Origin: a virus | Taxonomy: Duplodnaviria > Heunggongvirae > Uroviricota > Caudoviricetes | IMG/VR virus record: IMGVR_UViG_3300012155_000041 | Coordinates: 1 to 9,014 of that record | Reading direction: 5' to 3' (one strand) | Length of the DNA: 9,014 nt | In this document: one piece after another, positions 2,668 to 2,821 of the stretch | Position numbering within the stretch: position 1 is the stretch's first letter | Layout: the number at the start of each line of letters is the position of its first letter | Made by a program: the position numbers and the translations under genes | The notes under the pieces: model-generated | What the model saw: the letters and a program-made list of their open reading frames with translations, nothing else | What the model was told of the DNA's origin: nothing | The model's database searches: none

Positions 2668-2743
2668 GCCGACTTAGCTCAGCAGGTAGAGCAACTGACT
2701 TGTAATCAGTAGGTCACCAGTTCGATTCCGGTAGTCGGCACCA
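2668..2743 (+). tRNA. tRNA-Thr, anticodon UGT (UGU), 76 nt with encoded CCA
   Basis: Hand-folded cloverleaf: acceptor GCCGACT/AGTCGGC, D-stem GCTC/GAGC, anticodon stem ACTGA/TCAGT with loop CTTGTAA (anticodon TGT), T-loop TTCGATT, discriminator A plus CCA. Closely resembles E. coli thrU as I recall it. Confidence 0.9.
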
Positions 2744-2746
2744 TAT

Positions 2747-2821
2747 GCGGGTATCGTATAATGGCTATTACCTCAGCCTTCCAAGCTGATGATACGGGTT
2801 CGATTCCCGTTGCCCGCTCCA
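2747..2821 (+). tRNA. tRNA-Gly, anticodon TCC (UCC), 75 nt with encoded CCA
   Basis: Hand-folded: acceptor GCGGGTA/TGCCCGC (one G-U pair), anticodon stem TCAGC/GCTGA with loop CTTCCAA (anticodon TCC), 4-nt variable loop, T-stem ACGGG/CCCGT with loop TTCGATT, then T-CCA. Very similar to E. coli glyT as I recall it; starts 3 nt after tRNA-Thr. Confidence 0.9.

Follow-up and report, generated by a model that had tools for sequence, protein, structure and literature searches.

A tRNA-Thr(UGU) and tRNA-Gly(UCC) gene pair between antiterminator Q and the holin genes of a lambdoid phage

Transfer RNA (tRNA) genes between the antiterminator gene Q and the lysis genes of prophages have been known since the first genomes of Shiga toxin (Stx) phages. 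In phage 933W the genes ileZ, argN and argO occupy this slot, and pR′, qut, terminators, a 'pT putative tRNA promoter' and a terminator after argO are annotated in its record. For phage SfI, a tRNA-Asn and a tRNA-Thr(UGU) gene downstream of Q were described by Sun et al. 2013 (PMC3636060), who noted the same position downstream of Q for Sf6, ST64T, PS3 and phage 21. The presence of tRNA-Thr(UGU) in SfI was explained there by a bias towards the codon ACA (17.3% in the phage versus 7.1% in the host).

Here, a stretch of 9,014 nucleotides from a virus of the class Caudoviricetes (IMG/VR record IMGVR_UViG_3300012155_000041, positions 1 to 9,014; in the following called the window) was analysed, in which a gene for tRNA-Thr(UGU) is followed directly by a gene for tRNA-Gly(UCC). 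In a preliminary description, which was made from the sequence alone, the pair had been taken for a trimmed copy of the host thrU-tyrU-glyT-thrT cluster, with paired substitutions in the Gly gene that suggested it is kept functional. It is considered reasonably probable here that the pair forms an accessory tRNA operon in the Q-to-lysis slot of a lambdoid phage, which would supply decoders of the codons ACA and GGA.

The tRNA genes and their cassette

With ARAGORN, exactly two tRNA genes were found in the window, both on the plus strand and both with an encoded CCA end: a thrU-like gene for tRNA-Thr(UGU) at positions 2668-2743 and a glyT-like gene for tRNA-Gly(UCC) at 2747-2821. The three nucleotides between them read TAT (2744-2746, plus strand). 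The Rfam model RF00005, with a gathering score of 29, matched the Thr gene with 72.2 bits (E-value 1e-14) and the Gly gene with 62.9 bits (E-value 4e-12). In the same test thrU and glyT of Escherichia coli K-12 scored 73.8 and 64.9 bits, so that the window copies are at most 2 bits lower, and because of this closeness to the host genes it is unlikely that either copy is a pseudogene. The two complete cloverleaves, 3 nt apart and with encoded CCA, that had been drawn in the preliminary description were thus recovered by both programs, and in these scans, of the kind that it had suggested as a check, neither gene was scored as a pseudogene.

Alignment with the K-12 genes showed identity at 75 of 76 positions for Thr, the sole change being T16C in the D-loop, and at 72 of 75 positions for Gly, with the changes C6T, G49A and C65T. 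The first of the latter turns the acceptor-stem pair C6-G67 into a U6.G67 wobble, and the other two together replace the G-C pair at the start of the T-stem by a compensated A-U pair, which agrees with the earlier remark that the substitutions in the Gly gene keep its helices intact. The cloverleaf of the Thr tRNA has stems of 7, 4, 5 and 5 bp, and its only non-canonical pair, A52.C62, is also present in host thrU; every pair of host thrU and glyT is retained in the window allele, and the anticodon stem-loops of both tRNAs are those of the host. Identity elements for threonyl-tRNA synthetase (ThrRS) and glycyl-tRNA synthetase (GlyRS) are established knowledge. All of them could be read from the sequence, namely anticodon UGU, G1-C72, C2-G71, G35 and U36 for Thr, and anticodon UCC, U73, G1-C72, C2-G71, G3-C70, C35 and C36 for Gly. 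Both genes are thus very probably intact, with every appearance of functional tRNA genes.

The pair is located on the late-gene strand between Q (251-637; Pfam PF06530, E-value 2.5e-52) and two holin genes of the families Phage_holin_8 (3373-3765) and Phage_holin_3_7 (3755-4030), which are followed by the gene of an M15 peptidase endolysin (4027-4410); the latter three were assigned by Pfam matches and all four genes are on the plus strand. Further upstream, at 1697-1810 on the same strand, a C-terminal remnant of a DNA methyltransferase gene (37 codons plus stop) was recognised by alignments to strain AH19B041 and phage 933W. This remnant has 76% identity to the last 37 amino acids of the intact methyltransferase of AH19B041 and 67% identity to a remnant located just upstream of pT in 933W. 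The position between Q and the holins and the methyltransferase remnant shared with 933W bear out the earlier assignment of the pair to the slot known from Stx phages, and the cassette of the window is one variant of a known modular late-region tRNA slot.

The cassette is a unit of about 330 nt comprising a putative pT-like promoter, a leader hairpin, the two tRNAs and a structured 3′ element with a U-run. The putative sigma-70 promoter at 2579-2606 (plus strand, read from the sequence) consists of TTGCTC (2579-2584), a spacing of 16 nt and TATTAT (2601-2606), and its predicted transcription start lies near 2613. It resembles pT of 933W (TTGCAG, 17 nt, TATTAT) as well as the equivalent site in 606R7, and the layout TTGAAA, 16-17 nt, TAWTAT is kept upstream of the pair in many diverged loci. 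That this promoter is a Q-dependent pR′ with qut is unlikely, since the same type of promoter and leader is found about 2 kb downstream of differing Q proteins, with lengths of 128-131 amino acids (window) and 229 amino acids in AH19B041. A promoter-like site directly after Q (TTGACC, 18 nt, TATATT, at 642-671) was detected by a promoter scan.

The leader (2614-2664, plus strand) was delimited by folding and by the consensus of 15 loci. It comprises an outer stem of 6 bp (GGTTCY/RGAACC), tandem G.A/A.G pairs, an inner stem of 4 bp and a variable loop, and ends 3 nt (AAT) before the 5′ end of tRNA-Thr. It folds as a single hairpin with -18.2 kcal/mol, a value that is not significant against shuffled sequences (z -1.4). 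For 15 diverse loci 10 consensus pairs were predicted, three of which are changed on both sides. The leader is not explained as a small open reading frame, since the loci share neither a start nor a frame; as a vestigial tRNA or a member of a known RNA family it was also rejected, there being no match in ARAGORN or Rfam (E-value up to 5).

The 3′ element (2848-2943, plus strand), a putative terminator or 3′ trailer, was defined by folding and covariation and begins 26 nt after tRNA-Gly in the window. A three-way junction at 2848-2935, closed by GGCACUG/CAGUGCC, is followed by an A and a run of seven U (2937-2943); the minimum free energy is -29.6 kcal/mol (z -2.3). In 63 loci (27 variants) such an element follows the Gly gene at a distance of 24-30 nt, and compensatory changes were seen in two hairpins; no Rfam match was found for it at E-values up to 5. 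PasA and PasC, small RNAs (sRNAs) of the 3′ external transcribed spacer (3′ETS) type, were considered as its counterpart and rejected, as PasA is on the strand opposite its neighbours; the published PasA fragment and probe have only the short motif TCGGTGGAGA in common with this region. According to a terminator scan, the cassette is flanked by terminator-like hairpins at 2406-2433 and 3178-3205, and another hairpin lies at 3226-3243.

Distribution, alleles and gain or loss

A junction scan, in which the 3′ end of the Thr gene had to be followed after 0-25 nt by the 5′ end of the Gly gene, detected the fused junction in at least 119 IMG/VR contigs and at 11 places in species-representative genomes. 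The latter matches were from E. coli, Shigella, E. ruysiae, Citrobacter braakii, Enterobacter hormaechei, Photobacterium and one low-coverage contig of 423 bp. Among the matches listed, the spacer was TAT in 129 of the 135 collected copies, which indicates a single origin. With a junction-specific query of 63 nt, the pair was found in 870 of 5,426 complete E. coli genomes (16%), at 1,056 places and with up to 5 places per genome; those among the matches listed are annotated as tRNA-Thr and tRNA-Gly. In the Stx2f phage phi467 the annotated pair stands in the order Q, stx2f, Thr, Gly, S, R, Rz, and it is annotated also in SerU-LTIIb, 606R7, 689R5, 683R6, PhiR47_1 and JLK-2012. The pair is therefore already known and widely annotated, and the combination of Thr and Gly, which had appeared unfamiliar in the preliminary description, is not new. 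Literature searches on thrU/glyT in prophages, on tRNAs of LT-II prophages and on ileZ/argN/argO turned up nothing relevant. Among complete E. coli genomes and phage records, none was found to contain the window as a whole at a coverage of at least 80%; the window is a mosaic, the closest contexts of which come from draft assemblies.

The tRNA content of the collected loci was determined with ARAGORN. Among the matches listed, Thr, 3 nt and Gly stand alone in 58 loci, the array Met(cat), 1 nt, Lys(ttt), 2 nt, Thr, 3 nt, Gly was present in 37 loci, and the array Met(cat), 1 nt, Arg(tct), 2 nt, Thr, 3 nt, Gly in 18 loci; minor variants beyond these three main arrangements also exist. By eye, 'Met(cat)' is of the ileZ type, and the second gene of the arrays has the argN body of 933W with a changed anticodon. 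In JLK-2012 the array Asn, Thr, TAT, Gly replaces ileZ-argN-argO before the same downstream terminator sequence.

Anticodon changes were also seen in single loci. In SerU-LTIIb (L001, 1122-1272) an upstream pair annotated as 'tRNA-Arg' and Gly has a thrU body with anticodon UCU, and a thrU body with anticodon UUU was found in L074. The argN-type body located before Thr (for example L002, 3926-4003) carries UUU, UCU, UAA, AAA or an unreadable anticodon, compared with UCG in 933W. In Enterobacter hormaechei CP169086 (L126) the 5′ acceptor strand of Thr is of the ileZ type (GGCCCTTTAGCTCAG...) and the acceptor stem is broken; this gene is an apparent chimera, formed by a deletion between ileZ and Thr via the common motif TAGCTCAGT.

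Altogether 43 distinct alleles of 154 nt were obtained, the commonest of which equals host thrU and glyT exactly (32 loci among the matches listed). As 14 nt of the Thr gene and 18 nt of the Gly gene were prescribed by the junction scan itself, these segments are uninformative on constraint. Alleles present in at least three loci have only loop, compensatory or wobble changes. Frequent changes are T16C and T20C in the D-loop and the exchange of C-G for U-A at the Gly pair 6:67; the last of these occurs in most non-host alleles. The exchange of G-C for A-U at Gly 49:65 occurs in two alleles with four copies in total, the window included. Broken pairs or a loss of CCA were restricted to alleles from one or two loci. 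This pattern is as expected for functional tRNAs with occasional decay.

The cassette lies between two direct repeats that are 77% identical to each other. Both gave full-length matches to the Rfam family RF02076, namely copy 1 at 2237-2435 (35.5 bits, E-value 1e-5), which ends in the hairpin at 2406-2433, and copy 2 at 3005-3208 (32.8 bits, E-value 7e-5), with the hairpin at 3178-3205 (both on the plus strand). As these scores are below the gathering score of 47, the repeats, which resemble STnc100 and PasD, are best termed STnc100-like. STnc100 and PasD have been described as related prophage sRNAs near lysis genes (bioRxiv 10.64898/2026.05.13.724894). Each repeat contains the identical core TTTCGGGAGGCACCCGACACCTCA of 24 nt, at 2348-2371 and 3114-3137.

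Near-identical prophages were collected as contigs encoding the ORF6N-domain protein of the window; four of them have the pair and two (L140 and L143) do not. L143 corresponds to the window minus exactly 766 nt, from core 1 to just before core 2 (2348-3113, plus strand), with 2299 of 2300 positions identical on the left side of the joint and 300 of 300 on the right. The missing segment contains the promoter, the leader, both tRNAs and the 3′ element. The position of the joint between identical cores indicates that homologous recombination between the repeats on either side has added or removed the cassette.

A paralogous unit without tRNAs was located upstream, at 1890-2169 on the plus strand, by the promoter scan and by alignment with the cassette and with AH19B041. 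It has a promoter with 10 of 12 matches (TTGAAA, 16 nt, TATTAT, 1890-1917), a degenerate leader and an element of the form GCACTG...CAGTGC with a T-run (2071-2169). In AH19B041 (L005, about 5330-5660) a leader is joined directly to a 3′ element, which is likewise an empty unit. Such a promoter-leader-3′ RNA unit might encode a small RNA of its own. MAFFT hinted at decayed relics of a Thr 3′ half and of Gly at 1920-2075, which were rejected because the local score of 19 was reached by 193 of 500 shuffles.

Probable function of the pair

In E. coli thrU and glyT exist in one copy each, and only their products decode ACA and GGA. According to the account favoured here, the unit would be transcribed from its own sigma-70 promoter, with the -10 hexamer at 2601-2606 as in 933W pT, and during lytic growth also by Q-modified polymerase that arrives from upstream. 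Where spacers are only a few nucleotides long, the two tRNAs are expected in a common precursor that is cut apart by RNase P. Cleavage by this enzyme at the 5′ ends of Thr and Gly would remove the leader hairpin and separate the two tRNAs, and host 3′ processing enzymes would trim the UAU trailer of Thr exonucleolytically and remove the 3′ element. Because all known identity elements are intact, the products are expected to be charged by host ThrRS and GlyRS. One prophage copy would then double the gene dosage for the ACA and GGA decoders, given that thrU and glyT are single-copy genes and the only decoders, and a modest translational benefit may result for the phage and for other horizontally acquired genes.

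Codon use was compared between 13 coding sequences of the window (2,144 codons) and 42 annotated K-12 genes (14,748 codons). ACA amounts to 12.6 per 1000 codons in the window (25% of Thr codons) versus 5.4 (10%) in K-12, with an odds ratio of 2.3 (p 4e-4), and GGA to 14.5 per 1000 (18% of Gly codons) versus 6.0 (8%), with an odds ratio of 2.4 (p 8e-5). All pair-carrying loci among the matches listed (252,890 codons) have 14.1 ACA and 13.6 GGA per 1000. The HNH endonuclease gene at 5221-5571 uses ACA for five of its six Thr codons, the highest ACA density in the window.

Several observations weigh against this account. The closest relative with a complete genome (L004) has a helix-turn-helix gene in the slot and no tRNAs, and its values of 12.0 ACA and 13.0 GGA per 1000 match those of the window. 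Codon use was for this reason rejected as a discriminating test: the enrichment of 2.3- to 2.4-fold, which had been proposed as a check in the preliminary description, is real, but it is general to these phages and not an adaptation specific to the carriers. In the genes of the window the enrichment is stronger for AGA and AUA, 5.4-fold and 3.1-fold, with no tRNA for either codon present. The -35 hexamer of the cassette promoter is weak (three of six positions) and was missed by a consensus scan. Broken stems and missing CCA ends in some members of the family show decay under relaxed selection. Finally, as prophages with and without the cassette are near-identical, the cassette is dispensable and its benefit probably small.

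In an alternative that is unlikely but the best placed of the rivals, the pair is a near-neutral hitch-hiker, spread and duplicated by repeat recombination and kept intact by gene conversion with host thrU and glyT, with no measurable benefit. It is favoured by the near-isogenic prophages with and without the 766-nt segment, by the empty or decayed units in the window and AH19B041 together with the decayed singleton alleles, and by the equal codon usage of the tRNA-less relative; many copies are moreover 100% identical to the host genes amid unrelated flanks, as gene conversion would give. Against it, 16% of complete E. coli genomes retain the pair, with up to 5 copies each, and promoter, leader and 3′ element have stayed conserved in lineages that have diverged. 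The main non-host alleles differ by paired, mutually compensating exchanges, and these cannot arise by gene conversion from host genes.

A wider interpretation, which is put forward only tentatively and is also rather unlikely, concerns the cassette as a whole. It might belong to a previously undescribed modular RNA cassette system of lambdoid prophages in which the tRNAs are cargo. The unit of such a system could comprise a pT-like promoter, a leader with tandem G.A pairs, the cargo, a branched 3′ RNA with a U-run and an STnc100/PasD-like sRNA. The sRNA-like repeats could serve as portable recombination sites, by which units might be duplicated, emptied and supplied with other cargo and might evolve new decoders; possible examples of these are the thrU body with UCU or UUU and the argN body with its six or more anticodons. 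In this case a regulatory role, such as that of a 3′ETS-type sRNA or of a control of tRNA output, might fall to the RNA of the leader or of the 3′ element itself.

Compared with the accessory operon, a role as a buffer against tRNA-directed attack is very unlikely. Here the cassette would replenish or dilute Thr(UGU) and Gly(UCC) under attack by a defence system, a toxin or a colicin-like nuclease, with anticodon nucleases and GNAT toxins that acetylate Gly-tRNA-Gly as candidate attackers. Other phages are known in which tRNAs counteract host defence. In E. coli a single gene encodes each of the two tRNAs, which makes them weak points, and related arrays carry other tRNAs as well as a second slot with a variable anticodon; these points fit this explanation. 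The anticodon stem-loops are, however, those of the host and offer no escape variant, a toxin specific for these two tRNAs was not found in the window, and the cassette is dispensable. To our knowledge there is no toxin that specifically targets tRNA-Thr(UGU).

Slightly less probable still is a use of the tRNAs as processing signals, with RNase P cutting a long late or moron transcript at the tRNAs and thereby releasing or stabilising flanking structured RNAs. Such an arrangement has a parallel in the 3′ETS-derived sRNAs that arise from host tRNA operons. The structured RNA with a U-run located 24-30 nt past Gly in 63 loci is consistent with it, as are the elements resembling Hfq-binding sRNAs on both sides of the unit and the tRNA matches near prophage Pas sRNAs and the processed PasA 5′ end in the literature. 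The same promoter and 3′ element are also seen in units that lack tRNAs, however, so that the flanking RNAs do not depend on them; PasA, encoded on the other strand, cannot be equated with the 3′ element; and the full conservation of anticodons and identity elements points to decoding.

The host locus and comparison with described systems

That the two genes are not phage genes at all, being a flank of the chromosomal tufB locus or a remnant of a tRNA integration site (attB/attL), is refuted, although tRNAs near prophage sRNAs are taken as integration hot spots in a preprint (bioRxiv 10.64898/2026.05.13.724894): tyrU, thrT, tufB and coaA were not found in the window, neither flank is homologous to the corresponding host sequence, the two genes are complete and stand inside the late region, with Q before and the holins after them, no integrase was found in the window, and the same fused junction is present in sequenced phage genomes. 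The comparison also settles the possibility of a tufB-locus flank raised in the preliminary description in favour of phage-borne genes.

The order of the K-12 locus is coaA, thrU, 8 nt, tyrU, 116 nt, glyT, 6 nt, thrT, tufB. It agrees with the order given in the preliminary description, as does the absence of tyrU, thrT and tufB from the window, and the similarity between window and host does not extend beyond the two tRNA genes. TAT is exactly the spacer that would be left if a single clean deletion of 206 nt in the host locus joined the first base 3′ of thrU (T) to the last two bases 5′ of glyT (AT); such an agreement has a chance of roughly 1 in 64 of being a coincidence-type match between unrelated spacers. 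On the chromosome of Photobacterium sagamiensis (L132, 575-950) the order is Ser(UGA), Thr(UGU), 8 nt (TTTATTAT), Gly(UCC), 6 nt, Asn(GUU). The adjacency of Thr and Gly is thus native there, the spacer of 8 nt also ends in TAT, and the genes are identical to those of E. coli at 75/76 (Thr) and 75/75 (Gly) positions. By this comparison Thr(UGU) and Gly(UCC) tRNAs hardly vary within the gamma-proteobacteria. Owing to this near-invariance and to the native adjacency in Photobacterium, the sequences do not single out a donor. Of the earlier idea that the pair is a trimmed copy of the host cluster, the fit of TAT to a clean deletion stands and the identity of the donor does not; an origin from the E. 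coli thrU-tyrU-glyT-thrT operon is plausible but not proven.

Other features of the window were noted as well. Directly downstream of Q, strong Rfam matches were obtained for c4-a1b1 targets (665-717), isrK (678-754, 78.7 bits) and C4 antisense RNA (780-863, 71.4 bits), and a gene with an ORF6N domain (Ant-like) follows 3′ of the C4 and isrK matches at 916-1503. The interval between Q and the late genes therefore looks like it holds an antisense-controlled antirepressor module of the P1 immI or Gifsy-1 isrK type. The HNH gene at 5221-5571 is located immediately upstream of the genes of a P27-family small terminase and a large terminase, the usual association of HNH and terminase genes. An open reading frame at 4353-4607 (probable start 4425) overlaps the end of the M15 endolysin gene; no Pfam match was found for it. 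From an internal Met it encodes 60 amino acids with a lipobox-like LVGC motif, and this protein is a candidate spanin-type lipoprotein.

The finding of the pair itself is of little weight, as exactly this pair is routinely annotated and an explanation as a codon supplement has already been published. Worth recording are the architecture of the cassette, the recombination joint in the STnc100-like repeats, the empty paralogous unit and the relatives with shifted anticodons. Natural prophage pairs that differ only by the 766-nt cassette provide a clean system for measuring the contribution of the tRNAs. The flanking sRNA-like repeats show how small accessory modules are shuffled in the late region, in which Stx and LT-II toxin genes are found as well. 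For tRNAs within 10 kb of the prophage sRNAs Pas and STnc100, which the preprint cited above reads as integration hot spots, the present locus suggests that many are instead phage-borne tRNA genes of the Q-to-lysis slot; such matches can be true phage genes and not integration scars.

Compared with the host thrU-tyrU-glyT-thrT-tufB operon, the window has near-identical tRNAs in the same order of Thr followed by Gly, many sister copies being 100% identical. The host operon differs by the presence of tyrU, thrT and tufB and by an unrelated promoter and unrelated flanks, whereas the pair of the window is part of a prophage. Closely spaced tRNA pairs are also known from T4-like phages and from host operons that are cut apart by RNase P. 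T4-like phages contain Thr(UGU) and Gly(UCC) species with about 84% identity, but T4 is a virulent phage with a larger tRNA array and has neither the junction nor the flanks in common with the window. SfI, Sf6, ST64T, PS3 and phage 21 are lambdoid and have Thr(UGU) downstream of Q, like the window. In the SfI-type phages Thr is paired with Asn and Gly is not described; JLK-2012 has Asn-Thr-Gly, and the window Thr-Gly only.

In its context the pair resembles ileZ-argN-argO of 933W: both stand in the slot that begins after Q and leads to the toxin or lysis genes, and both have the methyltransferase remnant upstream, a similar promoter-like site and terminator-like hairpins on either side. The two families are also joined directly, as Thr-Gly follows ileZ-like and argN-like tRNAs in at least 55 loci. 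The tRNAs of 933W are Ile2 and Arg, in contrast to Thr(UGU) and Gly(UCC) in the window, the putative promoter is separated from the first tRNA by 9 nt in 933W and by the leader hairpin of 51 nt in the window, and the 3′ element of the window is a different, branched one.

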